DNA of 59,377 bases, the filler included, from Dugesia japonica (Eukaryota): the NCBI GenBank assembly GCA_001938525.1. It is 6 parts of 6 records of this genome, joined end to end, with 100 filler letters (N's around TTAATTAATTAA, not from the genome) between each part and the next. Parts side by side here need not be neighbours in the genome. Positions count along the whole stretch, not along the records: positions 19,764 to 29,772 come from MQRL01616891.1; 5 more parts are not named here. One strand, 5' to 3'. The position numbers and the translations under genes are program-made. The notes under the pieces are model-generated. The model saw only the letters and a program-made list of their open reading frames with translations, did not search any database and was not told the origin of the DNA. How positions within the stretch are numbered: the first letter of the stretch is position 1; each line of letters begins with the position of its first letter. This document shows positions 1-40,680 of the stretch, in pieces.

Positions 1-849
1 GGTATTTTTACAGTAATATTTAGTTATCTATATGGATAATTGTCAATCTCATAATATTATACACTCATAATTTGTATATTACTCATTTGTTATGTAAATA
101 ATACAAAGTATCTATGTAAAAATACGTGGTATATATGTAAATATTATAATTTAAATATATAAATAATACACTGTAAATATATAAATAATATAGTCATACA
201 AANNNTGTACTTATAAGTTTTATATATTCATTGAAGGTATTTTAACAATAATTTTAAGATAGATATGAACGTTTTCCACACTCATAAACCCTATACACTT
301 ATAAACCCTATATTAAACAGTTGTTATTTAAATATTACAAAGTAACTATGCAAATAATATATTCATAAACCCGATACACTCATAAAAATATTGTCTTATA
401 AGTTTCTTAGTTATATATGGAAAGGTTTCATGAATTTATGACAAAAGNNNNNNNNNNNNNNNNNNNNNNNNNNNNNNNNNNNNNNNNNNNNNNNNNNNNN
501 NNNNNNNNNNNNNNNNNNNNNNNNNNNNNNNNNNNNNNNNNNNNNNNNNNNNNNNNNNNNNNNNNNNNNNNNNNNNNNNNNNNNNNNNNNNNNNNNNNNN
601 NNNNNNNNNNNNNNNNNNNNNNNNNNNNNNNNNNNNNNNNNNNNNNNNNNNNNNNNNNNGTTCTATGTTTTTATCATCTTGTAAAAAGTTTTAATTTGAA
701 TATTTTATCCTGTAATTATCACAAAGACTTCTCTCTGAAGTTTTTATTTGAATATGTTATCACGTAAAGATCACAAAGACTCCCTTCTTTGAGGTTTTTT
801 GGTAAATATATTTTAACATGTAAATATCACAAATAAANAACTTTGAAAT

Positions 850-1550
850 TTTTGATAGATGCAACTCAGATGCAACACACATACACTGAAAATCACGCGT
901 CTGATTATTTTTAATAAATTTACCTACAAAATGAAATTTTTAAAACTCAGCATAGACGCCATTTTGAATTTTATTGATTTTTTAAAATAAATGTTTAATA
1001 AATGCAATAGGTATGCAACTCAGAAGCCACGAGAATGCAACACACATACGCTGAAAATCACGTGCCTGGGAATTTTTAATAATAAATGCAATAGGTATTC
1101 AACTCGATGTCATAAGAACGAAACACACATACACTGAAAATCATATGCCTTTTAATTTTAGACTGTCCCATTCCTTGCAAAATATCAAGACTGTCTTATC
1201 TTAAGCAAAAATATTTTTTTTTTAAATCAATAATGCCTTAATTTCTTAAAAATATAAAGACTTCCAAATATCCGGCAATAATATCAAAAGTGACTCATCT
1301 TAAGTAAAATATATTAAGAAAAATAATCAATAATGCTTCAATCAAGACAGTCCAATCTCTTACAAAAATATCAAGACTGGCCCATTGACTGCAAAATATC
1401 AAGTCCGTTCCATCCTATGCAAAATATAGAGACTACTCATACCATGTAAAATATCAAGACTGCCCATATCTTGTAATAATATTTTACAAAATATCAAGAG
1501 TGACCGATATCTTGTAATAATATAGAGAGTGATCATCCCATGCAAAATAT
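850..1550. repeat. Degenerate tandem repeats (long ATGCAAC...CACATACACTGAAAATCA units, then ~27-bp AAAATATCAAGACTG units)
   Basis: CACATAC(A/G)CTGAAAATCA recurs at ~880, ~1043 and ~1126. AAAATATCAAGAC-like units recur many times in 1160-1550. Confidence 0.75.
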
Positions 1551-2128
1551 AAAGTCTGTCAAAAAAAATTTAATTAAATTTCCAACCAAAAAAAATATCT
1601 TAAATTTTTTGCTAAAAAGTATTTTTTAAATTTCATGCCAAAAGATATTTTTTTGAATTTCTCACCAAAAAAATATCAAGACTCCTCTTCCTGGTTCGAA
1701 AAATATTAAAACCAATCTATCCATCTTCAAAAATACTCAAAAATACATCATTTTTACAAAAATACCATTACTTTCTATAAATTCGTCATTTTAAGCAAAA
1801 TACAGCATTTTTACACAAAAAACATTTCACATGTAGCTCTGGCGAGGGTAGCTCTGCTGGCAGCAAGGGCTTGAGCCCCATCATGATCATCACCACCAAT
1901 AAAAACAAGAACTCCAAAAAAAGATCATACCCACTCAGCAGCAAAGCTCAAAAGGCAAAAAAAGCCAAAATGCAAAACAAAATCACAATTGCTGTCCCTA
2001 AAACTAATGCTGCAACGGTCAAAAACGGCCTTAGCTATTCCGGCGCACTGAGCAGCCCCGCGAGACCTTCTAGTGCATGATGGTTTAGGTCCACAGTTGC
2101 TCCCACAATTGCTGCTGATGAGGCGACT

Positions 2129-2565
2129 GTGGATGGCCCAAGAATTGACCTCACACATGATGCATGGTTCTTTGACGAGTATATCAAAAAATACATGAAT
2201 GCGTACTCTGTTGATAGCGCTTTTGTTCACATTGACCCATGCATCATCCAAATTGTGGTTGCTCAAAGTAGCTCTTTTGCTTATCTTGGCTGTGATATAA
2301 GCAGACTGTCAACTGCTCGTCGCATAATCACCTCAGTGAATATTGACAATCAACACTGGGCTCTATTCTTTTACGACACACCCAATGGAATTGTATGCAA
2401 CATTGATCCCCTCAGATCTCCCTTCAGGCCGGATGTTGCTGCAAGACATGGCGAACACCTAACCAATGAGTTGGACGCAGCTCTTATTGAGCATGTTGTG
2501 TTTTCTTTGGCGTAATTTGACAGAGAAACACAACAGAATAGCTATGATTGTGGACCATTCGTTTA
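2129..2565 (+). pseudogene. Ulp1/C48 SUMO-protease-like domain of the non-LTR element
   Basis: IITSVNIDNQHWALFFYD...IDPL, then after a stop QQNSYDCGPF (2531-2560), giving the His/Asp/Gln/Cys catalytic set. Confidence 0.82.
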
Positions 2566-3621
2566 AAATTACGCCATGAAACAGTCCTGCGGTGAGCCAC
2601 TTAAGGAGCTCCACATCAAGAAGGTACGATACTTTGTTCGNNNNNNNNNNNNNNNNNNNNNNNNNNNNNNNNNNNNNNNNNNNNNNNNNNGCGCATTAAC
2701 TGAATACTCTCATGCTAATATCTTTCTCACAGATCTTGAAAGATATAATCTTTGCCCTCCCATAAAATCTGGCGAAGATGGATTCGAATTTCACTGTCCA
2801 GATGCATCTGCAATAAGACGCATACTTTATGATCTGTCTGTGTCAGCTCCTGATCTAAATAAAATCACATACTAGTATCTGAAGTCCGCAGACTTAAAGT
2901 GTGCTCTTATTCACCAAATTTTTAAGAAGATTCTATCTTCTGGTGTTACTTTGGACAGTTCGAAAACCTACTCGACACTGGTGATTTTAAAACCAAGCAA
3001 AGTCGGATCATACCATGAAGTTTAATAATGGAGACCAATAGCTTTACTAGACTCTCTTTACAAGCTCTTCATGGCTTGTCTGACATCTCAGTTTTCGAGT
3101 TGAGTGATGAGGTCTAAATTGATACATAACCTGCAGAAAAGTGCTGCCGAGTCGGAAGGCTGCTGTGAGCATAACTTTCCACTACGAGTGAGCATATTTA
3201 TCCTGCCTTGTAAATAGCAACCTTGTTCAAATTACAATCAAGGGATTACTGGTCCCTAAACTTCATCACCGAGATTCCTACGGGTACCTAGAAGTTGACT
3301 TTGGCCCCGATCATTTCCAAACTCCAACAAAAATGTTTGAAAGATCTGCCTAGGATTTAGAGAAGATAACAAACTCGGTTCTCTATCCCTGACATAAAAT
3401 CCACGCGTGCCGAACCTTCATTCATTCAAGATTCACGTTCGCGTTTCGGAATTTCAACATTCCTTTGGGGAAATTCAATTGTAGCGGCCACTCCGAAAAC
3501 GGCGTAATTTTCAGTGCCTAGGGTATCGACAAACGAATCCGCACCTCAAGCTGGCAAATACTTTCCTTTTCAGTGTGGTCACCCTCTGATTATCTTTATA
3601 GTGCCCAAAAATTAGAGGGAG

Positions 3622-4720
3622 TTGGCGATGGACGAGTACTCCGTACAATCTTTAGTAAAAGCATTCAAAATGCTTCTATGTCCAGATGAGATTGTACGAG
3701 ATGTGGCTAGCCATGATCTGATTATTGCTGCCACAAAACATTTAAAACGTTTCCGACTGTGCTCAATTGATGAAGCATTGAACTGGCTCTCCGTCAACAC
3801 CACTGATTCTAATCTCAAGTGTTGGTGGTTGAAGGTCTATGACGCAATCGCCTATCTTCATAAAATGGTTCACCTGCAGGAAAAGTTCAAGCGTAATGAG
3901 CTTGAAATTTGCATGCAAGTGATTGATTGCGTCGATGAAGGAAACTATTTGATTTCCATCAAAGACCATACAGCCATAACCAAACTGCTTCATCGTCTCC
4001 TCAATTGGGCTCATAAAAGAAAATGGAATGCCCTGACTAAAACTGGAGCAATTTCAACAGCTATCGGAGCGTCCACTTTATCTACAAAACCGCTATTCAA
4101 TGGCTCTTTTAAACCTGATGAATGGCGATTTATTCATAGAGCAAAGACTAGCACACTTCTGGTAGGTTGCAGCCATGGGATATCATTTAAATCCTGTCAG
4201 AAGTGTGGCTATCACTTGGAAACTCAGGCACATGTCCTGTGTCATTGCTCTCCTTTCTCGGCTTTTAATTCAGGACGACACAATGGTGTGCTTGAGTTGC
4301 TCGCCAGGTTTATTAGATCAAACACTTCCTTGAAAGTCATCGTAGATCAGGCCTGTGACCTGGTTAACATGACTGATCGCGTTGACTTGCAATTAATTAA
4401 TAGCGATGTCAAGCGCATTATATTACTGGATGTAAAAACTCCCTATGATACATCCAGTAATCTAAAATTAGCGAGGGACATTAATACCATAAAATACACG
4501 CCACTCAAAATGTACATTCAGAAAAACTAGCCAGCTTGAAAAGTCTCCCTTGAAACGATCTCAATTGGGTGTTTAGGATCGTGGTGTGTAGAGAATGAGC
4601 CTGTGCTCAAACAGGTTGGGCTCCGCCCTAGTACAATAAGAAAGTTTGCGCTTGTCTCGATCAGGAAATGCATATTCTGGTCGAGTAGAAATTGGAAATT
4701 CCACAACGGGAGGCTCGCAA
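3622..4720 (+). pseudogene. C-terminal CCHC zinc knuckle and restriction-like endonuclease of the non-LTR element
   Basis: ORF 3622-4530 contains WRFIHRAK, CxxC-ETxxHVLxHC, RHN and DVKTPYD; the terminal GCLGSW motif follows after a stop. Confidence 0.88.
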
Positions 4721-4989
4721 TCTGGAGATTGAAGAAATCGAAAACTCCAGAGCAGACATGTCTGACGTACATAAAGCCAATTAAGGTTTAAACAAAATCT
4801 GTCATTTCCTTACGACATCTTCTTATTCTTTTCTTTTTGTTTCTGTTAAATACCCAAGCTTCAAGCTGGCCGAACCAGGACATGATTAAACATGGAGAGG
4901 GTTTTCTAACCTGAAAGATTGTTTTATTTTTCTCGGCGTTTTATTACGTGTAGTCCCCCAAAATACAGCATTTTTACACAAAAAAAAGA

Positions 4990-5650
4990 TTTCAAAAGAT
5001 TAAGACGTCATAACCACCCTTCAGAAAAATTTCAAATACCCAATTAAATAAATCTTATAAAATCCGATAATTAATTCTCTTTCCACACATACCACTAATA
5101 CCCTCCCGAAATTTCTTTTATCCCTTTTATACTACTTTTTAAATATTAACCAATCGAATTCAAGCTCAACCAATTAAAAATTAAGTCACAATTGACATCC
5201 AAATTATTTTCCATCATATTTCCTTTCCCAAAAACATCAAACAACAAAATCCAACAACACAATACAAACATAAACCCCACAAAAAAACACTCCACGATAA
5301 TTCATAAGACTGTGACCGTGAGCTACAACACTTCTAGGACAAACCATTCATCCAACATCATAAGTCCTTTAGACAATATATTGACCAAATTTTTGTCCAA
5401 CCACAACCTAATCTTAAAGACTTTAGAAAAATTATTTCCAAGATCTCCACCTACCCTTCGAGTCCAAATTCCATCTTACATACACAACCACAAACACAAA
5501 CTCAACTTGACCTAATTTTTAAAAACCCCCTTAGCAACCCAAACACACACAAATTTTAAAATTTAAAGATACACACACATCAACAGGATCAAAAGAAAAT
5601 GATCCGATCAAAAATGTTTTGATCCCAAAAATCTTAGAAAAAAAAATTCA
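4990..5650 (+). repeat. C/A-rich dispersed repeat, copy 1 (homologous to ~13500-14080)
   Basis: Blocks shared in the same order with 13500-14080: CAGAAAAATT..TAAATCTTATAA, CATAAGTCCTT(T/C)AGACAATAT, AAATTTT(T)GTCC, CAGGATCAAA..TGATCC(C)GATCAAAA. Confidence 0.75.
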
Positions 5651-5832
5651 CATAAATTTGGTCACAATCGTAAGAAGTTGTCGAGCACACCCAAGAGGAT
5701 GGGGGTCCCCTCAAATTGGGACCGTGCGCTACTATCCCATACTTATATCGTAAAAAACAAGAAGATTATTATTTAAATGTGTATTGAAAATATTACAAAC
5801 AACTTAGGATTATTTGTCTATTTAATTAGAAG

Positions 5833-6159
5833 ATGAACTTTGAACGAAGTAAATCATTCTTTACAGCAATACTACATTCTTCTACTATAAAGAGAATGAA
5901 AATTCTGTAAGTATTTCCATCATTTGTAATTGATGATTTACTTGAGATTATTGTAAATATGGTTCGTGGTAATGTAACTTTAAACGAAGAGCAAAGAAAA
6001 GAAAAAAAACATAATATATTGGAAAAACATAGAAATTCTTTGTTGTCAATTGTAAATAACAAGAATAAGAAATTAATGAAAAAAGTATTTTACGGGAAAA
6101 ATGGTAACTTTATAAAAATAATACTTCCAATAGCACTAGATTTATTAAGTCTTGATTAA
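5833..6159 (+). pseudogene. Polinton/adintovirus small basic core-type protein homolog (one internal stop)
   Basis: MNFERSKSFFTAILHSSTIKRMKIL*...LLEIIVNMVRGNVTL...LEKHRNSLL...GKNGNFIKIILPI resembles the Polinton pattern E..LN.LKGNVPL...L.KHK..LR.L...QKGGFL..LL (recognised by eye). Confidence 0.6.
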
Positions 6160-6214
6160 TTTTAATAAAAATGGGTCTAAAGGCAGTTAGAAGAGCAGCA
6201 ATTTAAAAGGTTTG

Positions 6215-6220
6215 ATTATT

Positions 6221-6284
<64 letters not shown>

Positions 6285-6334
6285 NNNNNNNNNNNNNNNN
6301 NNNNNNNNNNNNNNNNNNNNNNNNNNNNNNNNNN

Positions 6335-6395
<61 letters not shown>

Positions 6396-6415
6396 CATTG
6401 TTGTTGTTATTATTC
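6215..6415. repeat. (ATT)n microsatellite spanning a gap
   Basis: Direct inspection. Confidence 0.95.
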
Positions 6416-7479
6416 AATTAAATTTAAATATTTTTAAATGCTTGTAAGCAATGAATTTCAAAAAAACATTTAATGTTTCATTTCATTAGAAAATTATGTA
6501 GTTAAAATTATTTAATTATGATTATAATTTTAATTATGATTAATTACCAATAAAAGCTAAGATACATTTTGATTGGTTGAATTTATCTATATGAAACATA
6601 TAAACTAAATTTAATTACTATTAATTCTTAGAAAATGTCAGATTACACTGAAGAAAATTTGACAGTCAGAAAGAAACAGATGTATCATACTGATGATGAA
6701 TCTTCATGAAAAGAACCATGTTTTGATATCCAAACAGATGATGACGAAGACGACATAGGAACAGAAGAAATTACTAGAGACTCAATAAAAATAGAGGATT
6801 AAATCTCTGATCAATATTTTGTAGAAAAATGTATTTTATTTAAATTATATTAAATAATTAGTTATAATTCATTAGATATGATTGTTGATATATTAGAAGA
6901 AGAATTCCTAAATCTTAAGAATGATTCCGTATATCGGGCACCAGAAGTAATACTGATACAAAATCATGCAGTATACAAGGTTTCATATTATTACGATAAT
7001 AAAATTATACTTGGATGAACCATTCAGTTGTACATCTATATTAAACTATTGTTTAAGATTAAAATTTAAAAGGATAGTCAAACGTTTCCTTAAATAAATA
7101 TTAGTTATTACTTTATTGTTTTGATGTCATTATGAATTATTTAATGGTCATCTTAATCTAAGTATCAAACATAATATCTAATATCCCTTAGAAAAGTCAC
7201 TTGATTCATTGGTTTTTATATGATTTTATAGTCATTCATTGTTTAAAGTCTTAATGTTTCTCTCTTAATCTCTTTATTTTGCCCAGTTTTTACCTGATTT
7301 TCTTTATTTCTCCATATTTTCTAAAATACATGAATAAGAGTGAGATGGATCAAGTGAGAAAGGGTAAGTGTGAGAGGCCAAGAATGAGGAGGTAAGAAAT
7401 AGCGAGATAGTATTATCTAATTTTCTTGAAGTCAGGAAATTTAATCTGAAATTTAAATTAACTTTTTTGATTCGATGAA

Positions 7480-17749: not shown

Positions 17750-18844
17750 TTATTTTGTCATTCCTAAAAAATCCTGCATATGTCGTTTGAACTTTTTCAT
17801 TTGAAAGTAATATACAAAAATATTGACTGATTGTTGAATAAAAAAAAATTCCCAACCAATATCTGAAATATTGAATATTATAACTAAAGTATCTAAATAT
17901 TCTAGTGGTCGTTGATTAATTATTATTAAATACCATATATAAACTGAAATATGTGGAATGGATCCAAGAATGAATATGAATGATAAAATTAAAACAAAAA
18001 CAACAGATTTAATTTCTTTTCGTGTTTTATCAAAATTCGAGTTTTGAATTGATAAAATTAACAACCTTTTTGTGTTATGTTTAGATAGCCATAATTTGTA
18101 AATTAATAAAAAATTTGTTAAAATGATGCTAAATATCGGAACTAGTCCAGGTATAGTAAACGCTGTTCTTATAAATTGAACAATCTTTTCCAAATATGAA
18201 TTATTAAAATAATAATTACTACAGTCAAGCTTTCCACTAGTATTTTCTAATTTTGTAAAAATACAAATAAAACCAACAACTAATCCTGTAAAAATGTAAA
18301 TGAATCCCACTATTATTTTTGCGAAATTTCCTCCATATTTCATCATTTTGATTGGAAAAAATATTGCTAAACATCGATCAATACAAATTCCTAAAAATAT
18401 ATAAAATCCAACTGAAACTGTATACATATAAGCAAAGCGATATACGATACATGACGTGGTATTTATATATTTGATAAACAAATATAATTTCCCATTTGTA
18501 GCATATGGCAAGCCTTTGGCTACAAAACACCATAACCATCCATAAGACAATAAATACCCGATATCTGTAATTGATAACCCTATTAATAATATATTTTGTC
18601 TATTTCGTCGTTTATATTTTAATGAAAATATATAAATAATAATTACGTTGCTAAAAATGCCAAAAGTTCCAATAAATGGAAATGCATATGAAGACCAAAT
18701 ACCCATTATTTGACTAAGAATACATAGAGTATTAAACAAAGAAATATTCGTTTCGTTTTTAGTGGCTTCTTCACATGCATAAAGTAAATCATAAGGAGTG
18801 TCTAATAAAGGAAATTTGTCTCTAAGAACAGAAAATGAAAACAT
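17750..18844 (-). CDS. Intronless orphan rhodopsin-family (class A) GPCR, flatworm-expanded peptide-receptor-like type
   Basis: Intact 364-aa ORF with seven hydrophobic segments; GxxxN in TM1 (GIFSN), LSITD in TM2, DRC at the end of TM3 (CIDRCLAIFFP), IP in TM6, NIFVY in TM7; KGLPYATNG in ECL1. Confidence 0.92.
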   Translation of the reverse strand: MFSFSVLRDKFPLLDTPYDLLYACEEATKNETNISLFNTLCILSQIMGIWSSYAFPFIGTFGIFSNVIIIYIFSLKYKRRNRQNILLIGLSITDIGYLLSYGWLWCFVAKGLPYATNGKLYLFIKYINTTSCIVYRFAYMYTVSVGFYIFLGICIDRCLAIFFPIKMMKYGGNFAKIIVGFIYIFTGLVVGFICIFTKLENTSGKLDCSNYYFNNSYLEKIVQFIRTAFTIPGLVPIFSIILTNFLLIYKLWLSKHNTKRLLILSIQNSNFDKTRKEIKSVVFVLILSFIFILGSIPHISVYIWYLIIINQRPLEYLDTLVIIFNISDIGWEFFFIQQSVNIFVYYFQMKKFKRHMQDFLGMTK

Positions 18845-19663
18845 TATTAAATTTTAGCCAATTTAGCATTAAATTTATAATAAACTTAACCAAATAAAAT
18901 CATTTAAATTATTAACCAATGATAAAAGTGCTATAAAAATTGTCATATTATTAAAAATAGTGAAATATTACATTTTAAACAAAATAATACAAAATATTTT
19001 GCACAAAATTGTGATTTTTCTATACATAATTCAATTAAAATTTTATTAGTAATTAGTAAGATATCAAACAATTAAGTACTGAAAAATACATTTAAACCTT
19101 ACAAATTTATTAGTAGAAACTAATAAAATTTCACGAAATTTTCAATTATTTTAAATAAAGTCTTAACAGAATACAATACTGTAAAAACATTTTAAATTGG
19201 CAGAAAATAAGAAAACTAGATAATTTCCCTGAGAGATAATTCTCCTTAAGGAAAAATAACAAAATGTTTAAAACGAAATATGATAGCAGACCATTTTAAT
19301 GTGTAGTATTTTGGATAATGATAATTCATGCTACTCAGGAGCTACATTTTTAACCTTTTAACCATTTGGGAACTTTTATATAACATGTTTAATAAGGTTT
19401 TTGACATTTTCTGATTGAACTTTCATCTCATGTATATGATATCTTTTTTATGTTTTATTATATTTTCTAACAACAGATTAGACACCAATATTATACATTT
19501 CAGTAGAGGGAAGCATTCACCCTGGCTCACTTGTGAAATTTGGTTTCTTACATAATCAACACACACAATAAGCATGACATATAACCTATTACGTTATCAC
19601 CCTCATGGAACTTGGAATTACAAAATTACTATGTTACATAATATATTTTCGTTACTATTATTA

Positions 19664-19763: not shown

Positions 19764-19769
19764 TTAATG

Positions 19770-20961
19770 AAATTGCACTCCCAATACCCTAAGTTCGATT
19801 AGTTTTCGACACATAGGGCATTCATTTAAATTTTAAGCGCAGCTGTAACTGGTTTTGAAGTTTCCACATGGAAGAAAAATAACTTCGATAGTTTCCTCCA
19901 GGCATATGGCACAGTCGTTATCCAATAATGCCCGTTCTTGTTTGTATTATTTTTGCAGCTCTTCTAATTTGAGTGATCGTTGGTATAATTCGTGTGGTGT
20001 GATTAATTCAGTCCCTTTCTCTGTGACCGTTTGTTTTATTAGTTAGTTGATATTTCCTTTCTTTAGCTTTAGTGTATTATTCAGCCTACTTGCCTGCAGT
20101 TCTACTGCCATTTCTATTCGGTTGAAAGACATATTCCATTCAATTCTGCAAGCTGTTGCTATTAATTCTTCCTCACCGATTGGCTGTACTCTGGAACATT
20201 TTGGTTGATGGAACATCGCCTTTGATAACTTCTTTACTTCTTTTAATAACGTGGTTTCTCGTTTACAGGTAGTGTATTTAATTACTTTGTCGTTAGTTTG
20301 TTGAACGAGGTATAATCCGTCCATTGCTTTCTCTTTCAGGCCTGGTATTTCCTGGAAAGTTTTTTCTCTAGCTTCGACATTCCATTCAAGATCATCTGGT
20401 AATGTCACTTCTGCTAGATTCTTTATGATTTTGCAATATAATTTTTTCAGTTGCAGTGTTGTTTTCTCAGTTTCTGGGTTTCTACCTTTGGTTGGCTGAG
20501 TTTTATTATTCACTTCTAGGTTTTGCAAGAAAAGAACAGATAGGAAACCATTTCTTGTGGGCTCTATTGGGTTTCTAGTTTCTCCCCCATTTGCACAGGT
20601 TGCCTTGGCAGTATATGCATTTCACCTTGTCTAGACGTTCTTGAGTACCGGCGAAATAAAATCCAGATCTGGCTATACCCTCAATGAGTCTATGTAGATG
20701 CTTTGGTAACTCGAATAAGGATTTTCTTCGCATACCTTCATCACAATATNTATTGTCAAACACTTTCATCGCACTATACCACACTTTCCGTCGTATAAAA
20801 TTTTCAGGTGCTCCAACGCTATTATGATAATACATTATGTTTTGCACTATTCTGATTTGCTTAATTTCATCTCGTCCTTGGCTCATGCAATGTAATTCAA
20901 TATATGGGTCATTCATTTTGATTCTGGCCTCGCTTATTGATAGTTCCAGATTAAATTCCAT
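19770..20961 (-). pseudogene. IAP-like protein: BIR domain, helical/coiled linker and C-terminal RING
   Basis: BIR: EGMRRKSL...IARSGFYFAG...DKVKCIYCQGNLCKWGRN*KPNRAHKKWFPICSFL. RING (19805-19915): CAICLEETIEVIFLPCGNFKTSYSCA*NLNECPMCRK. Stops, one frameshift and two ligand substitutions. Confidence 0.9.
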
Positions 20962-21179
20962 TATCTACAATTATAGGTACGGTTGATTCTAGTTATAGTA
21001 TTATTTATTTACATTAATTTTAATTAGTCGTTTATTTACCGTTTTTTTAAAGATTACTTGCGTATATAAATAGTTCCTAGTAGATATTTATGTATATAGT
21101 TTATATATTTCAGTATATAGTTTTTATATATATTTTATTTTATCATATTTTTGTCATATATATATATTTTTTAACTTCT

Positions 21180-21815
21180 GCTCTCCCTTAGATTTCAGAC
21201 AAAGCTGACTTGGATGTGAGCACTCCGGGTCTTGAGTGTCTCAATTTCCCACTTTTGTGAGTTTAAGGTAGTTAAGTTCTCTCGACTGATCAGAGATCAG
21301 ATCGTGTTGTTTAGCTGTTAACTCCATTGCGTAATTTTGTTTTTCTGTGGTAATTTCCAACATTCGTCGATTTTCTATTATTTGTTGTCGACACATAAGG
21401 GTTTCTGCATATAAATTCTCGTTTTGAAGTTGTAGGATTTTATTTTTAAATTCCAGCTCGCACCAATCTAGGGGATTTATAGTTATTAGGGTTTGTATAA
21501 ATTGATTTTGACTGTGCTCCAGTTCTTCTAATCGTTGTTGAGTCCATTGAGTTTTGATTTTAGCGCTATTCCATAATTCTTTCATTTCCTCATTATGATT
21601 TCTCCATATTTCATTGATCGTCACTTGTGAACAGATAATGTTATATTATTTATTGATGTGATACTTCCTGCAGGACTACTACATATGTCGCCTTGTGAGT
21701 CCATTAACTCATTCTCACCCATACTGGAATAGTCATTTTCATTTTCGATCTGACTCATTTTGTCTGAATAAGAGAGCTTTATTAATACCACAATTATAAT
21801 TACACGTTTATACAT
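21180..21815 (-). pseudogene. Coiled-coil accessory protein of the retroelement (frameshifted at ~21622)
   Basis: ORFs 21621-21815 and 21241-21624 overlap by 4 nt; heptad-rich Q/E/L/K sequence. Confidence 0.5.
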
Positions 21816-21868
21816 TACATATTTATTTTCATCATGATTTACAGTATTTACACGGATTCGAGATTAGT

Positions 21869-22683
21869 TTAACAGGTCATTATCCCCGGTGCCTGATAGG
21901 GTCTAGGCACATATGTGGGTAATCCGTTTGATATCATCCCCAGTGGTAATAATTCGTAATTTTGTGGGGCTACTGGTAGGTGTCGTCTTTTCCCTTTCCG
22001 ACTATGTTTCTTTCGTTTGGGTTTTGTTTGCTTACAGAATTGCACATATAGTGTGATTAATATCAGTACCGCTATTAATACACTCCCTACTATCATTATA
22101 TGGTCTGTTCCTTTTTTGGTTGGTTTAATGGTAACGATTGGTTCTTTCATTGAAGTAGGCCCATCCCATATCATCATCTGATCTTCCTTTGGCTGGTAAT
22201 TCCTCAGGTTTAACATTAAATTGTTTAGGAAGTTTGTTTTTTTGTTTTTTTCCCTCATTGGCCGCCGTAGTTGGTTTTTGAGTTTCCGTTATTGTGGTTT
22301 TCTCTGTGGTAGTTGTAGTACTTATTTTAACCTTTGGTTTAGTATTGTTCAGTTTTATTCTTATATCCCGATTTATAACTGTGGTGAATTCCATTTCCCA
22401 CATTTCCGGTCCAAAGCTACCCATGTTCACTCCTTGTTCTTGTAATGCATTTTCTTTGAATCCTGATATTTTTTCATTATACGCCCATCCCCATTGAGCG
22501 AGTGAATAGTATTTCTGTGCCGTTAATTGTTCCTTTTTTTCGTTAATCCGTAATTGATATGTGTTGTTCATTTTTCTGATCCGTACAGGTCCTGGACCTT
22601 CCTGCCAACGAGAACCCCATTTTCCAAACGTGTATTCGGTTATCGAGTGGAATCCTTTTCCCCGATTAATGGCTATACTTTTT
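21869..22683 (-). pseudogene. Type-I membrane protein with Thr-rich mucin-like stalk, TM helix and basic cytoplasmic tail (5' part lost in the N gap)
   Basis: STTTTTEKTTITETQKPTT stalk; TM IMIVGSVLIAVLILITLYVQFC followed by KQTKPKRKKHSRKGKRR; tail motifs YELL and LPTY; frameshift near 22250. Confidence 0.65.
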
Positions 22684-22760
22684 NNNNNNNNNNNNNNNNN
22701 NNNNNNNNNNNNNNNNNNNNNNNNNNNNNNNNNNNNNNNNNNNNNNNNNNNNNNNNNNNN

Positions 22761-23230
22761 GCTTTTACTATTGCCATGATTTCGCGTTCGGTTGTGCTAT
22801 AATTTAGTTCAGCTCCTTGAAATTTCTTGCTGAAATAAGCGATCACTCTCTCTCTTCCCTGTTCATCCAATTGGCTTAATATGGCACCCATCGCGTATCC
22901 ACTAGCGTCAGTGGCTAATATAAATGGTTTCTTGAAATTCGGATGCACCAAAATTGGTGCAGTTAATAATTTTTCCCGTAATGTCTCAAATGATTGTTGT
23001 TGTTCCGGCCCCCATATAAAGGCAGTATCTTGTTTGACCAATTCTTGCATGGGTTTTGAGATTTTTGCGAAATCTTTGATAAATTTGAGGTAATAGTTTG
23101 CGAGTCCTAAAAACTCCTGTATTTTGAGTACACAATTACGGGGTTCTAGGTTTCTGATTTTCTCAGTGTTTCTTGGATCTGGCTCCTTCCCTTTATTTGA
23201 TATTAAATGACCTCAATATGTCACTTTTTT
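22761..23230 (-). pseudogene. Gypsy RT connection domain and RNase H (truncated by the N gap)
   Basis: QEFLGLANYYLKFIKDFAKI; WGPEQQQSFETLREKLLTAPILVHPNFKKPFILATDASGYAMGAILSQ...YSTTEREIMAIV. Confidence 0.95.
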
Positions 23231-23800
23231 CTAGGCCCATTTGCATTTGGTAGGTTTCACTTTCAAGTTCCATTTTTGTAACCTTATAAACACATTACGC
23301 AAGTCATTAAGATGTCCTTGAAATGTTGGCGAATAGATTAATAGATCATCAATATAGGCCATACATTGAGATATACCGTGAGTTACATAATTCATCATTC
23401 GTTGAAAAGAGGCTGGTGCATTAGTAAGCCCGAATGGCATACGGATAAATTGGTATAAGTCTTTGCCTGTGGAAAAGGCTGTTTTCTCTCTGTCTTCTGG
23501 TTTAATTTGTATTTGCCAATAACTGCTTCGCAAGTCCAGTGTGGTGAATATTTTGGCGTTACAGGGTAACTGTAATAATTCATTGATGTCCGGCAGCGGA
23601 TATGTATCTTTTTTAGTTTGTGCATTTAATCTTCTGTAATCGATACAGAATCGCTGTGTCCCATTTTTCTATCGACTATTACCACTGGTGACTGCCATGT
23701 AGAGCAGCTAGGTTCGATCACACCGATTTTCACTAATTTAGCCGTTTCTTTATTTGCAAACTCTTTTTTCTCCACTGTCATGGCATATGGCTTCTGTTTG
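23231..23800 (-). pseudogene. Ty3/Gypsy reverse transcriptase
   Basis: CIDYRRLN, YPLPDI, LDLRSSYWQI, KTAFST, MPFGLTNAPASFQR, YIDD (23345-23356), KCKW; frameshift near 23665 and a stop at 23231. Confidence 0.96.
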
Positions 23801-24009
23801 CTTGGGGTTTCGTCCGTTAGTTGATTTGTGTGCATTGTAGCTATGCACATACCTAGTTCTTCATCAGTCCATGCAAAATTATCTCTAAACTCCTCCAGCA
23901 TTTGTAGTATTGTCTGTTTCTGATCATCCGACAAAGTTTCTGTCTCTACTTTAAATGTTCTATCTATTTCCAGTTCGGCGATTGTTTCCTCTATCAAGTC
24001 AAGTTCTGG

Positions 24010-24270
24010 TTCAATGGGAGTTAGTGTACCTATTCTAGAATTTGGTTTGATTGTGATATCTTTTTCGGTGAAGTTGACTAAACTAACTGGTACTTCTCCA
24101 CTTTTGTTGACTGTGATTATTCCTCCTGCTGTAGGTAACTCGTACTGTTGTGCAAATCCATCGTACGGTTCAAAATAACAATCTCCTTCGTATGCACTTT
24201 TGGTACTGACTACACAATATGCTTGGCATCTATTAGGTACCAAGATTTCTTTCGTAGTGAATACTTCGTG
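24010..24270 (-). other. dUTPase-like beta fold between protease and RT (catalytic motifs absent)
   Basis: EILVPNRCQAYCVV...GGIITVNKSGEVPVSLVNFTEKDITIKPNSRIGTL follows the V.N...I.I..G.RIG.L dUTPase-fold pattern common in animal Gypsy pol. Confidence 0.55.
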
Positions 24271-24329
24271 ATCTTTCACATGGGTATACCCTTCCAAGGA
24301 TTGCAATTGTAATTTGGAGAAGTTAAATA

Positions 24330-24630
24330 TACCATTCTTCATCAAAATTGGAAGAATGTCCGTACCCAAAATGCGCTGTCCAGCCATTTCGACTATTATC
24401 ATTTTGTGTTTGATTTTGTTGTCCTGATATTCTACGTCACAAGCTAATTCCCCAAAAATTTTAAGACTGCTTCCGTTTGCCACATCGGCTGTAGTGTTAG
24501 TGGGTAATATGTTTTTATATTCTGTTATCGCGATTTCTTCTATTGATAACAATGAGATTGTTGCTCCTGTGTCTAATAAAGCTGTTGTGGGTCTACCATT
24601 GATTTTAACCATAATTGTTAATACGGGTCC
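24330..24630 (-). CDS. Retropepsin aspartic protease domain 2
   Basis: VKINGRPTTALLDTGATISLL...VANGSSLKIFG...RILGTDIL within ORF 23626-25437. Confidence 0.93.
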
Positions 24631-24949
24631 GCCGTTGAGACTTGCGCATACTAACTCCGAAAGGTCACAATTGGGGTTGAGTTGTTTTCTGTCTTTCCAC
24701 CTTAGTTTTCGTTCTTGGAATCTTATCCAATCGTTCGTTATCATGGAGGCTGTATTGGTAATTTTCCGACGAGCTTGATTTAAGTTATTTTGTTCACCTC
24801 TGCCTGATGAGAGTTGCTGCTGCTGGTTAGGTGTTGAATGATTCCACCGCTGTGGTCGTTTCTGTTTGGTTATTATTCGAGTTTTCTGATACCCTGCTGG
24901 TGCATATTCTTGATCGTAGTTTTCCCGTATTGTTAGTTTCCTCAAATAT

Positions 24950-25260
24950 AATATTCCATCCGGGCATAGGCGTGGTAAGAGGTCCAGTCCTAATAAGCAG
25001 TAAAATGTTAATTCATTCATTATTTGTAATTTATGCCAAAGACGGATTCCGTCGCTTTCTATCGCACATATTGCTTCCCTAACAGGTGAGATTTTTTCTC
25101 CAGAGGCCGTGATGATAACTCCTTTAGTTATTGTTATTCTGAGTAGTCGATAATCTTCTAATATTTTTTTGTGGACTAACGTCGTACTTGTTCCCGTATC
25201 GATAATGGCTATTACCCATCTTCCGTCTATTTTTATCCTTTTTTGTAATAGTTTCGCTCT
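24950..25260 (-). CDS. Retropepsin aspartic protease domain 1
   Basis: IKIDGRWVIAIIDTGTSTTLV...ITASGEKI...CLLGLDLL within ORF 23626-25437. Confidence 0.9.
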
Positions 25261-25449
25261 CTGAGAAATCATCATACATACGGTTTGGGTTTCTAACTTA
25301 TCAATTTCAGTGATCTGGTTATTCGGAGAGCACAAGTTTTGGTCAGTCACTCTTCGATCAATAGTCGATAAATTGCTCTCTGTTAATAATACCATATTAG
25401 GAGCTTGTGGTGGACTCATATATGGGTTGTTGTACATGGGGCCTGGTGC

Positions 25450-27765
25450 TCATACCTGTTGTGGTTGTGGATTCATGGGTTGCCACCCATGTTGTGGATA
25501 AGCATCATAATACATTTGTGCTGGTGCTGCTGTATTTTCGTTTCCTCCGAATTTTAACGCGTTTCTCAGTCGTTGCATTTTGCTGATTTTTTCGTATTGT
25601 TGTCTTTTATACTCCGCATTGTATTCCATGGCGGTTTTATAACTGGGTACATGTAGTGTTCCTCTGCTTTCTCCTCTATCTTCGTCGCTGCTGCTATTAC
25701 TTTCATCTTTGTTCTTAAATCTTTCTTTGAATTGGCTGAAATACGATATTTTCTGTTTAGCATTGCTCATTTCTTCACACAATAACCTAAGTTGCATTAT
25801 GACCTCCTTGTTCAATCCTCTTATTTGTCCTTTTTTCCATATAAATCGTTTTACCCTGTCAATGTCTTTGGAGTGGCTATTAAGCACCATGGTTTGGGCT
25901 GAGAATGGGAAGATACCGGTTACCATTTTCCAATTCACTTTTTTTTCTCTTTTATATATGTCAAAACATGCAAACAATTGAGTAATCACTACTCGTGTTA
26001 CTGAAATTATCAGCATCACTCCCAGTAATCCTGCCATTGCTTGGCCATATATTATGAATCTTCCCCCCATTTTCCGCATGACATTTTCAGTAGCTTTCTG
26101 GAAATGATCGACCGACAAGAGCGCATTGTAATTTACACGCCAGTCTATATTGGTTCCACTAGTTAATTACACTATATTTGATAGGATTTGCATCCTTCGG
26201 ACTGGAAACAGCATTTATTCCCTAGCCTTCTCTAGATCTTCCCTGCTATAGATTCCTCCTTTATTTATATCAATTGGGGTGAATTACATACCTCCATTTA
26301 ATTGTAACATTGAGAATTTCCGCGGTTTGACTCCCACTGCCATTCGTTGGGGAAATCTTATCCATGAACCATCTTTCATTATGTATTGTGATCCAAATAC
26401 ATTAGAGCAAATTTATGATATTTGGTCTATAACCCAAAGGGGATATTATTCGAGTAATTGGTTGTACGTAACGTTTCTCATTGTTATGTATGATTTCTAT
26501 TTCATTATAGCAAAGTTTTGGGTTAGATAAAAACTCTGCTTTGCATTTGTATAGGTACATTACTTCTCCTACGACTCGACCAAATTGACCTTTTTCCAGC
26601 TGAAGTAAGTGGGTGACACAATCTGGGTTCGTAACTGCCATTGCTAACTTTGTCTTTAGTATTTCCTTATTCAACGTACAGTCATTCTGGATCAGATCGT
26701 GGTACATTCGTCCGATGGTATCCTGCATTCGATGGAATAAATTGTCCATTTTATTATTGGCATTTAGATTTAGTTTGATATCTTGTGACATTACTGCTGC
26801 CTGCGCCGTTTTTATTCGATGTTTTGACACGAATATTCTTTTATAGTTCGTTTTATACACTATTTGTGCACATTTTGACATGGAATTTCCTTTGATTAAT
26901 CGGATGGTCTCATCCTAGCACCGTGGGGGTTGTATGCCATTGTTGGTAGTATGATTTTGGACCTGATCTTATCGTTTATTTAAAATTATTTATCCTATCT
27001 TTTAGATTACCCTCTTTTGGGGCTTGATCAATAGGTACTATAGCTCGTTGCCCTTGGTATTCATTGAACATAGCCTCTTTTAGATGCGCCAACTTGCAAT
27101 CCTTGTGATCTACTTTGTATGTCAATGTTGATGTAACTGTATTACATGATCCATCCGCTGCTTTGCAGTATGACCTTCCTTTCATGGTCACATCCTGAGC
27201 ATAAAAAAATGCTTCATATTCCTTGAGTTCTACGGTGTAGGTTTCGATTGCTACCGCATACTGCCATACTTTTCCTCGTATAGTGTATGTACCATATTCG
27301 CTGTTACCTTTGTGTGAGGATATACTTCCTGCTGCTTCTATTGGCTGGTCGACTATATATCCCTTTTTGGCGATAACTTGAGTCCCGTGTTTGATGGTAA
27401 TTTTACCTGTCGTAAATCTTTCGTCGCATTGTTGTCCCATTAGATGTACAGGATGTCTCACTGTTCCTGGATCAATTATCGAGGTATAACTGTGATAACC
27501 ACAATGAAATATAAATGTCTTTACCGTTACTGTACATTCACGTACTTGGGCCTTATAATAATCCGACTCCTGGTACAAGTGGTAAATAGAATTATTACGG
27601 GAGTGAGATTTTCTCCGGGTTCGCGTCTGGACATTCTTCAGTATCCACTAAGGAGAATACTTCTTTTCCTACTTGCATCTCATCGCAGTCATATGTCAAT
27701 ATGGCTTCACTTCTGCCCATCATTAAGAATAGTAAGAGTATTGTAGTTTTTAATGCTTGCCATGA
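25450..27765 (-). pseudogene. Chuvirus-type (class III) envelope fusion glycoprotein with signal peptide, TM anchor and long cytoplasmic tail
   Basis: Signal peptide QALKTTILLLFLMMGRSEA then ILTYDC...FSLVDTEEC; VRECTVTVKTFIFHCGYHS; MYHDLIQNDCTLNKEILKTKLAMAVTNPD; GEVMYLYKC; CYNEIEI..N.KRYVQPITRII; GIYSREDLEKARE*MLFP; TM FIIYGQAMAGLLGVMLIISV. Several frameshifts and stops. Confidence 0.85.
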
Positions 27766-27830
27766 ATTTCGGCGAGGCCCACGTGCCCATCCATTCTCGA
27801 TCTCATTTAACTGATCCCGAATAATCCTGA

Positions 27831-28925
27831 TTACTGATTTTCATAAGAAGGCTGAGGCTTAGGGCATATGGCCTCAATAAACTTTTTCCATCCCCCATGC
27901 TGCTTTATCAATGGCACTATTTTGCTCTGCATTAGATCCACTATCGGTAATTTACTGAGGATGAAGTTTTTTGACGGCTTGCTTCTAGCAATTGATAGAT
28001 GTGTTTGTTTAATCAAATGGGCTATGGATACTGCTATCCTCCCTTTCGTTGGCTGATCCTGTAACAATTCATCCCTTACCCCTTCCAGGTTATCCCTTGT
28101 GCCATGGCTAGTACCTTTAGTGGCAGGAAATTTCCTAATGGCTGCTTCTATTTCTTTTGCTAGTGGTCTGAGACNNNNNGATAGTTGAAATTTCCCAATC
28201 CATATTTTTAGTTCTGGATATAACATTAGCAATAACTGCCGTATTACCACTTCGGTTGGCATATCATCATCCGTTGAATTTTCGTGGTATTTCTCTTGTG
28301 ATACCGTTGCTAATCGCTTATTTTGATGGTTTATGGATGTTGCTAATCGTCTCTGTTTTAATGCTTCTTCTTCTTCCGGATTTCCTGGGGGTTTTGTTCT
28401 TGGTCGGCCTCTATTACGAGGTTCAGTAACTGTTTCTGCATCCACTGTGGTGCTTACTGGTTTTGGGGGCACTTCTTCCTCTTCTGTCTCTATAGGATTT
28501 TCCATTTCTAAGGGGTGGTTTGTATCCATTAAATCGTCTATGACTGAAGATGGCAATTCTTTTGCTATTCTACTCAATATTGGTGATAATGGTTGTTCCT
28601 CTAATACATCTTCTTCGTCTAAGTCTACCTTGCTAGGATCATATTTCTTGCTTCGGGTGGGCTCTTTAGCTTTCATTTCCTCGCTTTTTCTAGTTGGAGG
28701 TGAGTATCTTGTGATTTGTAATTCATTCTTATCTTCTGTTAACTCGTCTGCTGATGGAGATCCGAATATTTTACGTTCCCAATCTTGGCTTGTTTTAGGA
28801 GTTTCTTTTGTTTCTCGGGAAGCTTCTGTACTTTCTGATTGATCGGTTGTAGGTCTTAATATTTGGCTAGCCGCTAATTGTGTACGGTTTTTATATGCTT
28901 TTAACATACCTGAGGTCTCTCCCAT
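27831..28925 (-). CDS. Acidic low-complexity region with AT-hook, followed by a Bcl-2-like domain
   Basis: AT-hook RNRGRPR (~28397-28418); BH3-like LRPLAKEIE; BH1-like VRDELLQDQPTKGRIAV; BH2-like LIKQHGGWKKFIE. Confidence 0.78.
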   Translation of the reverse strand: MGETSGMLKAYKNRTQLAASQILRPTTDQSESTEASRETKETPKTSQDWERKIFGSPSADELTEDKNELQITRYSPPTRKSEEMKAKEPTRSKKYDPSKVDLDEEDVLEEQPLSPILSRIAKELPSSVIDDLMDTNHPLEMENPIETEEEEVPPKPVSTTVDAETVTEPRNRGRPRTKPPGNPEEEEALKQRRLATSINHQNKRLATVSQEKYHENSTDDDMPTEVVIRQLLLMLYPELKIWIGKFQLXXXLRPLAKEIEAAIRKFPATKGTSHGTRDNLEGVRDELLQDQPTKGRIAVSIAHLIKQTHLSIARSKPSKNFILSKLPIVDLMQSKIVPLIKQHGGWKKFIEAICPKPQPSYENQ

Positions 28926-28982
28926 TATTGGTCTTGTTTTGTCTGCTGCCTTATAAGGGCCTGCGTCTTTTCGAGTGAGGGT

Positions 28983-29197
28983 ACCTCCTAATTCTGCTAA
29001 AATCCATGGCGTATTAGGTTTAACTAAATCTATTTCATTAGTCCAATTGGGGTGGTATCTTCCACTATTTCATCTTCGTTCAAAAGTTTGTATGGTGGCT
29101 TAAATGGTAGCTTTTCTCGCAGGTGCTTTATTGTATTATATACTAGTATCTTAATCGTGATTTTGTCTCCCTCTGGATCGATTATTCTGAATTTGAC
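28983..29197 (-). pseudogene. Ubiquitin/SUMO-like domain ending in di-glycine
   Basis: VKFRIIDPEGDKITIKILVYNTIKHLREKL...YKLLNEDEIVEDTTPIGL(frameshift ~29040)NEIDLVKPNTPWILAELGG; the GG-bearing frame continues into ORF 27831-28925. Confidence 0.6.
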
Positions 29198-29637
29198 TTC
29201 TAATGGGGTGGTCTGTCCCATCTCCGCTTTTTGCCATTTAACCAGAATTTTATTAAACTGAATATGATCCCATACATGGCATACTTTGATGGCCAGGATT
29301 AACCGTCGCAACTTTCTGAGATCTTCTACTGCCAGATCTTGTTGTAAGACTATATTGCATCGTCATATGATTTCCGGATTTATTAACTTATCGCCTACTA
29401 ACAATTCGAATAATTTTAGCAAATTGTCTTCCGGCTTCTCACCTTTGATTGGGTTGTTAGTCAGAGCTACTACCATCTCTACTCGTTGTTTACTTTGTTC
29501 TTGTTTCGGGAGTTTGGCTCTGGCGAATACTAGTGGGTGTATCTCTTCTATGTAATATTCCACTACTTCTCTAGCTTCCTGCTTCCATTTCTCCTCCGAC
29601 ACCCGTAGTCGTCGTCTCTCCTCATCCTTTGCTGTTA

Positions 29638-29772
29638 TGTTGGGGTGAAACACCGGATTAAGGCAAATATTATGGCGTAGGTAAACACGAAATTTAAAAA
29701 ATCTACATAAAAAAAGAAAATGAAGAATTCGGATCCAAGAAGGGCATAGTCAAGTTAGAGAGAAGAATTACG
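29638..29772. mobile_element. LTR-like terminus TGTTGGGGTGAAACACC interrupting the polyprotein (nested insertion)
   Basis: The same 17-nt terminus occurs at 41471; coding potential stops abruptly at this point. Confidence 0.65.
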
Positions 29773-36425: not shown

Positions 36426-37447
36426 ATAATGTTTAAATCAATTACCAATGCAACAGCGGTCCAATCTCTAAAGCCAGAGGGATGTTATATGCAAACAAAT
36501 GAGATAAACTCTATGCAAACTTATGGGACTCGATTGGAGTTTATGGAACCGATGTCGATCCTTGGTGTATCACACAAGAGAAATTAAAACAAAAAGATAT
36601 ACAGATTACAGACTTGAGGAAACAACTTGCCAGTCAGGAGGACATACTACGACAGAAGCTGATAATTCTGGGAGAGTTGGAAGTCAGAGTTGATCAACAA
36701 GAGCAAAGATTTCAACGACAGCTCGCGGAACTCACCCAATATCAGGCTGAAGGGGAAAAAGAGTTAATTAAACTACTTATACGGACAACCGAGTTGGCTA
36801 ACAATCAGCAGCGAGTTATTACTTCAATGCGTGNGACCCAGTTGGAAGCAGAGGAGCACACGAAACTCAGTGAANGACTCTCCGGAAAAGTTGAGACTAT
36901 TTTGCNACAGGTCCTAGTACCACTCGATGATATTAACACTCTCGAATCTAATGTGTGAATTCAGTCGGGCTTTAATCGAATATAGTTTTATGTTTACGTT
37001 TTGCATTATTGAATCAACTAATTAAATCGAATTGCATAATTAGCCAAGACGAAACAAAAATGATTATATATTAATTATACCTTATACATTTTACTAACTG
37101 TCCAGATTTGACATTCATTATTATTTTCAGTGTCCAACCGTAGAAAATTAACCGACACATCGCTTACAGACATCAGGAAAAAGTGGGTTTCAATCCAGAG
37201 AAAGTTGCAGAATGAAATCGCAGAATTGCAGAAAAAGAACTCTGCTTAACGGGAGAAAAATACCAGGTTGCAGGAACGAGATCTAGCGCTTTCTCAGACA
37301 TGTCGGGCAATGGCTGACATCAATAAAGCTTACGCAGATAGAGAGAGCGTACTCATTGCTACCGTTCGAACTTTGACACAAACATCGAAGCCGGACAAAG
37401 AAATTGTGACGGATAAGCCAAAGGAAATCATTGATGTGGACGAATAA
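36426..37447 (+). pseudogene. Spliced coiled-coil gene of unknown family (copy A)
   Basis: Coiled-coil ORF 36614-36958; acceptor TTTTCAG at ~37130; last exon RKKWVSIQRKLQNEIAEL...MADINKAYADRESVLIATVRTL...IIDVDE*; AATAAA at ~37462. Confidence 0.55.
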
Positions 37448-39614: not shown

Positions 39615-40680
39615 TTAGGCATCCAGATCCGCGGTAGGTTCCATTTCTTCGGTTGATTCCTCTGGCGATCGGTAATTTAACCAGAGTGTTCTTAACGAAA
39701 CAAACATTGAGCTCTCGCGGTCGGCGTAAGTCTTGCTGACATCCGCCATGAGCCTGTTCGCGTGCTGAATTGACAGCTCTTTCTTTGATCTGATTTTATT
39801 TCGCCGCGGATTTCATTACCTATCCCTTCAGCATCAAAATTTCATTTTTTAATTCCTTACGTTCTTCTTTCCATCTTTGCTGCGTGGCGGTAGCATCTTT
39901 TTTCAGCATCTTTTCTTCAGTAGATCTATTCACTACAAAAAAATTTATTTAATCATAATTTAATTGAAGTAAGTTTAACGGCGGTAAGTGATTATAATCA
40001 ATGAAAATTAATAAACATTATAAGTAAATTGTTTCTCAACAACTGACAACTATTTGAGAACGAAAAATTCACTCCGCACTTGCGGATTTTTTACACCGAC
40101 CAAAAAAAATAATAAAATTTTATTTAAACTTATTACTGTCTCTGCAGATTTAGAATGTTCAACGACAAAGTGACATACATAGCACTTGAAATTTCTCATA
40201 GAACTTTAATAAAATCAAAACACAATTCTGTCACTCGCAAACATTTATTTCTCATTTTCTCCCAAGGACTCCACTTTTACGATGATGAGTTTCTGGGAAC
40301 TTGCAGGCTCCAAGCCAAACTTGAGCGACAGTCCCAGAACTTGGTCTTTGAGATAGTTCAACTGCATTCGACTCTCCGTTTGGTGCATAATCAATTTGGC
40401 TACACTTCCCTTAATTAACTCCACGCCTTGTCGAAGTTTTTCATTCTCTTGTTGACAGAGTTGAGGAGTGGCCTGGGTTTCGGCCAGCTGCTGCTTCAAA
40501 ATACGGAACTTTTCTACCTTTTTTCCGCCCTTGTATAGTAAGCCTGTTTTTTCCTTCTCATACTTCTATCGCTATTCCTCTAATAATTCCACTGTGTTTC
40601 TCCAAGGAACCCAGAATTTTCCTTCATCAACATCGTTGGTAAAGACCAACGGAATATGAGCTTTGCAGTATTCGGTCATG
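39615..40680 (-). pseudogene. Spliced coiled-coil gene of unknown family (copy B, paralog of copy A)
   Basis: Coiled-coil ORF 40245-40499; last exon QQRWKEERKELKNEILML...MADVSKTYADRESSMFVSLRTL; AATAAA downstream. Confidence 0.55.

Follow-up and report, generated by a model that had tools for sequence, protein, structure and literature searches.

The analysed window is a stretch of 59,377 nucleotides from the planarian Dugesia japonica, a string of short scaffolds joined through 100-base N linkers. Its DNA is AT-rich with a eukaryote-like composition, and an Rfam scan of the whole window gave no match. The scaffold studied here (positions 19764-29772, 10,009 bases) is bounded by such linkers and cut at both ends. 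The features identified on its minus strand are, in order, several ORFs, a weak Bcl-2-like domain, an envelope (env) gene, two protease-like domains, a dUTPase-like domain, a reverse transcriptase (RT), a partial RNase H, a 77-N gap, a membrane-protein-like ORF, a helical ORF and a gene of the inhibitor of apoptosis (IAP) family. Neither an LTR pair nor any internal repeat pair was found within this 10-kb scaffold, and none of the other scaffolds in the window shows a DNA or protein match to it.

The env gene (25450..27830) encodes a Monjiviricetes-type fusion glycoprotein that is spread over several frames (PF24664; E 2.7e-21, 1.2e-23 and 8.8e-7). It is located upstream of the protease, whose ORF continues the frame of the last env piece after a single intervening stop. 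The following region (23626..25449) contains two aspartic-protease-like domains (approximately 25257-24967 and 24612-24352; PF13975, E 4.8e-15, two stretches) and, between protease and RT, a dUTPase-like domain (approximately 24183-24022; PF00692, E 1.3e-4, 22.2 bits against a cut-off of 22). The two protease-like domains (together 25257-24352) stand in tandem within one 607-aa open frame. The RT and partial RNase H (22763..23668) are interrupted by breaks (RVT_1, E 3.5e-30; RT_RNaseH_2, E 6.7e-33), and the order protease-RT-RNase H in the Pfam matches is that of Ty3/gypsy elements. The 77-N gap (22684..22760) lies at the expected position of the RNase H end and the integrase, and no integrase motif was found on the 10-kb scaffold. 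Gag CCHC knuckles, a MATH domain, a SUMO-like domain and ankyrin repeats were also not found on this scaffold, which is cut at both ends. Directly upstream of env lies a possible Bcl-2-like domain (27834..28178), the sole Pfam match there (PF00452, E 0.048, below the cut-off). A single-sequence model of this candidate gave Bcl-xL as the top Foldseek rows at E 0.62 or worse, and no Bcl-2 row occurred among the 50 VIA rows listed.

Two further ORFs, together with the gap, separate pol from the IAP gene. The first (21869..22683) is frame-broken and combines a stalk rich in Thr with a single hydrophobic segment and a basic tail. It has no significant Pfam match and likely encodes a type I membrane accessory protein, in addition to env. 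The second (21241..21645) is a 134-aa ORF that appears helical or coiled-coil by eye and matches no Pfam family above the cut-off. Its summed contig depth is very high, reaching 70,428 in contig run X1, whereas the flanking stretches have depths of a few hundred to a few thousand; this ORF is therefore shared with a far more abundant repeat.

The IAP gene (19764..20916) comprises about 383 codons and contains a first BIR (BIR1), a short BIR-like repeat, a helical linker and a RING. The most likely start codon is the ATG at 20916, with an alternative upstream ATG at 20961. Its stop codon is formed by the final three bases of the scaffold, so nothing is visible downstream of the gene. The intact relative P0155 (384 aa) aligns with the locus at E 1.2e-39, with residues 3-124 on 20907-20527 and residues 123-383 on 20531-19773. 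Because this alignment is colinear with a single frame change, the gene is intronless, as the first-pass annotation had proposed, and an intron-split host gene was rejected. The gene also lies on the same strand as pol, as had been noted, and on that of env, all three being on the minus strand.

The same annotation described the gene as complete, which the reading frame contradicts. The BIR and RING are in different frames owing to a single frameshift at about 20527-20531, four in-frame stops occur (codons starting at 20577, 20045, 19949 and 19835), one base is ambiguous (20751), and the RING has lost its His and one Cys ligand. An intact working gene was thus rejected on the four stops, the frameshift and the lost RING ligands. 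Judged from its reading frame, this copy is a decayed pseudogene that makes no full-length protein and is inactive. When each broken frame was used alone in word-index protein searches, 471 and 4 candidates were obtained, none of them significant. When stops were read as X, both domains were detected by Pfam (BIR PF00653, E 1.5e-13; RING PF13920, E 2.4e-10), and a chance motif was rejected.

The BIR1 (20527..20748; 51.5 bits) had been reported with four zinc ligands read through one stop, and this description is borne out. All four ligands are kept with the spacing C-x2-C-x16-H-x6-C, and one internal stop is present. The best solved-structure matches are the BIRs of NAIP, ML-IAP, XIAP and cIAP. 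A structure model of P0155 has a mean pLDDT of 43, with confident prediction limited to BIR1 and, in part, the helices at residues 270-309; its BIR1 matches XIAP BIR2 with a VIA Z of 10.1 (rmsd 3.2, 86 aligned). The columns before the zinc-binding His, which we take to form the peptide-binding groove, were compared with the third BIR of rodent XIAP (P0156). In contrast to this reference, the window copy, P0155 and P0003 have a basic and not an acidic segment here. Two tryptophans are kept in the window copy and absent in P0155 and P0003, and one column is unreadable in the window copy.

A second, shortened BIR-like repeat (20196..20384), in which His-x3-Cys replaces His-x6-Cys, was overlooked in the first-pass annotation. 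Scored against 74 canonical BIR segments from 44 proteins, this repeat reached an hhalign score of 26.8 (probability 74%), compared with a maximum of 12.4 in 30 column shuffles; taken alone, it has no BIR match in Pfam. Its first Cys is lost in the window copy and kept in all four aligned relatives, and the His-x3-Cys end is common to P0001, P0003, P0011 and P0155.

The linker (19971..20096) corresponds to a predicted three-helix bundle in the P0155 model (helices 270-309). It had been said to recall loosely the UBA region of cIAP. The P0155 helices match the CUE-like domain of N4BP1 with a VIA Z of 4.2 and the UBA of XIAP with a VIA Z of 3.5 (rmsd 5.3, 59 aligned), and both values fall within the range of chance arrangements. 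A profile comparison of the linker with 14 UBA-like segments scored 12.7, against a maximum of 13.6 in 40 shuffles. An atlas search with the P0155 linker returned BIR clusters at 0.79-0.85, which serves as a lead only.

The C-terminal domain (19794..19922) is an IAP-type C3HC4 RING, in agreement with the earlier description (PF13920, 40.5 bits). Its best solved matches are the RINGs of cIAP1 (E 2.6e-9), cIAP2 and XIAP. The window copy carries one internal stop in this domain and keeps six of the eight ligands, whereas all eight are kept in four distinct intact relatives.

A search against 1.84 billion representatives retrieved 855 matches at E 0.001 or better. Among the best 150 of these, most are RING-only, and the ENA proteins P0001, P0003 and P0011 match across the linker. 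A profile search, with 8 matches at E 1e-10 or better among 2099 candidates, added P0155. The intact intronless relatives are thus P0155, P0003 (with its near-copy P0151), P0011 and the partial P0001. None of the searches brought up a named Burro sequence. Trees were constructed for the RING (47 rows, 71 columns) and the BIR (48 rows, 78 columns) with near-copies excluded. In the RING tree the window copy and its relatives form a group with support of 97/95, with P0017 inside this group; in the BIR tree they group with an SH-aLRT of 98. In these trees, which have long branches and whose rows include no labelled planarian or viral IAP, the group stands apart from 41 and 44 other IAP rows, respectively. 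P0017 is a short RING protein (ENA, 142 aa) and may bridge the IAP family of the window copy to cellular IAPs. The segment before its RING is more UBA-like by eye. DNA around the relatives was searched for in viral_contigs (0, 2, 0 and 1 loci) and in metagenome_contigs (5 loci), and the loci retrieved were RING-only or 10-residue matches. No retroelement genes were seen on the inspected loci L001-L005.

To relate the IAP gene to its neighbours, codon use and contig depth were compared. The GC3 of the two IAP frames is 0.37 and 0.34, similar to that of six env/pol pieces (0.35-0.37), compared with 0.18 in the sole host comparison, a single host-like GPCR gene. This control is an intronless rhodopsin-family GPCR frame of 367 aa (17750-18853, minus strand; PF00001, E 1.3e-13) on the neighbouring scaffold. 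Codon log-likelihood ratios for the two IAP frames are +19 and +51, favouring the element.

Contigs covered the region 19764-20939 in 12 of 12 bins in all three contig runs. The summed depth over the IAP gene is 367-6521 in X1 (median about 1,200), compared with 10-29 for single contigs at joints. Tens of IAP copies are suggested by this difference, the summed depth not being a copy number in itself. Up to 27 separate contigs were found at one listed IAP site. In X8, which carries a second organism label, coverage of the gene is low but present. Most contigs differ from the window copy at some of the broken codons, so those breaks look private to this copy. A single-copy processed pseudogene of a host IAP was one of the outcomes against which the first-pass annotation had set its proposal. 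The IAP lies on many diverged contigs at multi-copy depth, and together with the element-like codon use this argues against such a pseudogene, which was rejected. RNA reads on partial IAP stretches numbered 35, 3 and 7 in three runs, essentially none, as counts read without a control gene, and no RNA dataset was listed as containing this stretch.

The depth over the IAP gene differs from that over the rest of the scaffold. In run X1 at 85% likeness, it is 1,126-2,363 (4 bins), compared with 3,818-104,099 over pol, env and the upstream ORFs (20 bins, median about 38,000), a difference of approximately 25-fold. Short depth peaks occur within the gene at the RING end and at the second BIR. The lower depth means that most env/pol relatives lack a close copy of this IAP. 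Either a sole subfamily carries this version of the IAP, or the cassette diverges much faster than pol.

This difference in depth bears on how the IAP gene came to lie beside pol. The drop occurs across the 77-N gap, which is placed exactly where RNase H ends early and integrase is missing, and none of the contigs listed bridges the gap between the IAP block and pol. These features would be expected if the block 19764-22683, comprising the membrane ORF, the coil ORF and the IAP, came from another element or subfamily and was brought beside pol by nested insertion, recombination or a scaffolding join across the gap. We consider this origin unlikely, since the strand, the A-rich coding strand and the codon use are alike on both sides of the gap, the gene order fits an element family known to carry an IAP, and the coil ORF inside the block itself reaches pol-like depth. 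Expansion of IAP families is common in many invertebrates, and the absence of introns would also be consistent with a set of retrocopies of a host gene, or with an intronless gene family that expanded in the host, neither having to do with element cargo. This explanation is highly improbable, as GC3 and codon use fit the element and not the host-like gene, the IAP stands in line with two other element-like ORFs, and it belongs to a long-branched clade apart from the other IAPs compared.

The reading we prefer is that the IAP gene, with real BIR and RING domains and a broken frame, is probably cargo of a Burro-type element. The proposal that the IAP belongs to the retroelement was made in the first-pass annotation, and it gains support from the shared strand, the codon use, the multi-copy state, the distinct clade and the published anatomy of Burro elements. 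Directly observed here are the domains and their breaks, the presence of many copies, a codon use like that of the element and neighbouring genes in a Burro-like order. Linkage of the IAP to pol across the 77-N gap is our inference.

Planarian Burro/GYPSM1 elements have been described with BIR, ankyrin and BCL2-like motifs (PMC6431247, section 7, after Jurka, 2007; Grohme, 2018). In the accessible text of the same source, env lies in frame between gag and pol, a dUTPase-like domain lies between protease and RT, and decaying Burro fragments are noted in another dugesiid. According to the available part of PMC13465017, Burro1 carries a BIR+RING protein named B-IAP, which protects planarian stem cells and is reported to block caspase-driven cell death (Lee et al., 2026, Dev Cell). 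Expression of BURRO1 on PIWI loss appears in the accessible part of PMC8532177, and the available portions of PMC11410931 and PMC13238120 merely mention Burro. The scaffold agrees with the Burro type in four features, namely the pol order, the position of env, the dUTPase-like domain and the BIR+RING cargo. Likened by described anatomy to Burro1/GYPSM1 of Schmidtea mediterranea, as far as the accessible descriptions go, it shares the gypsy-type pol, a mononegavirus-like env before the protease, the dUTPase-like domain between protease and RT, and the BIR+RING IAP. A probable Bcl-2-like domain before env in Burro1/GYPSM1 may also have a counterpart here in the weak candidate described above. 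Differences were observed as well. The copy here is dead and, over 10 kb, has no visible gag knuckles, integrase, ankyrin repeats or LTR, whereas Burro-type elements have an LTR pair and a total length of 25-30 kb against the 10,009 bases of this scaffold. The second short BIR-like repeat and the two protease-like domains are unmentioned in the accessible Burro descriptions.

An IAP on a Burro-type element is thus an arrangement already described for Burro1. A retrotransposon with an apoptosis inhibitor is striking, but because a BIR has been noted in Burro since 2007 and B-IAP was functionally tested in 2026, the main surprise is already spent. The present analysis adds a fuller domain map, including the second short BIR and a possible ubiquitin-binding bundle, as well as four intact relatives, and it hints at variation of the IAP cassette among subfamilies. 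Such details could be of use in studying the gene's mode of action and in learning whether its beneficial role extends beyond one species. No description of the short second BIR was found in the literature, which is weak evidence, as the figures and supplements of Grohme (2018) and Lee et al. (2026) may cover it and may also show where the gene lies with respect to the LTR.

Other known systems resemble the locus in part. GAG-ENV-POL elements have been reported in flatworms, and these errantiviruses of Platyhelminthes share a class III (gB-like) env before pol with the present element (PMC13524379); in the accessible text of this source, Burro and BIR each occur 0 times. Cellular IAPs of the cIAP1/2, XIAP and DIAP type share the BIR fold and the IAP-type RING. 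The present gene differs from them in having no introns, no CARD, an uncertain UBA, a basic BIR1 groove segment and a branch of its own. Baculoviral and nudiviral IAPs of the IAP-3 type have two BIRs and a RING. As the first-pass annotation pointed out, the layout is indeed parallel, since both are intronless and compact BIR-BIR-RING genes on a mobile genome, and in BFVD the P0155 model retrieved baculoviral/nudiviral IAPs first (18 rows, E 7.4e-6 to 7.4e-4). The parallel does not extend to the sequence, as identity in these 18 rows is 13-24% for a model with a mean pLDDT of 43, and the second BIR is shortened here. This likeness gives no evidence for common descent beyond shared IAP ancestry.

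Taken as cargo of a Burro-type element, the decayed intronless IAP likely rode as a downstream accessory gene of an env-bearing Ty3/gypsy element of this type in a planarian. The steps proposed for its action draw on IAP biology and on the Burro1 report, while the part observed here is the anatomy. An ancestral element would have captured a cellular IAP as a processed copy, which would have been kept as a downstream accessory gene and multiplied whenever the element transposed. The BIRs of an intact copy would serve to recruit caspases, or proteins regulating them, as substrates for the RING, which would act as a ubiquitin ligase. Ubiquitin ligation appears more likely than classic groove binding because the BIR1 groove segment is basic and not acidic. 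A cell transcribing the element would thereby escape apoptosis, to the benefit of the element and possibly also of host stem cells, as reported second-hand for Burro1. By analogy, the action of this IAP family may resemble that of Burro1 B-IAP. The window copy would have gathered its private mutations after insertion, like the rest of the element.

As a more tentative proposal, on balance somewhat doubtful, Burro-type elements may carry an IAP subfamily of their own with an undescribed design, consisting of a basic, groove-poor BIR1, a short second BIR with His-x3-Cys, a CUE/UBA-like bundle and a RING. Compared with env and pol, such a cassette would be replaced, or exchanged among subfamilies, at a far higher rate; this is the pattern expected of a death-blocking gene that is in an arms race with planarian stem cells or is being tamed by them.

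Features of other mobile elements were observed elsewhere in the window. On the plus strand at 2081-4530, a Ulp1-like protease motif is followed by a CCHC motif and a restriction-like endonuclease end, as judged by eye; Pfam gave nothing for 3616-4527. These features are presumably those of NeSL/R2-group non-LTR retrotransposons. Two coiled-coil-looking ORFs on another scaffold (36503-36958, plus strand; 40245-40565, minus strand) lack any match to the element scaffold at the DNA or protein level. Two GIY-YIG-like pieces were also seen by eye on the minus strand (46478-47053 and 45324-45605), which we take to be of the kind found in Penelope-like elements.
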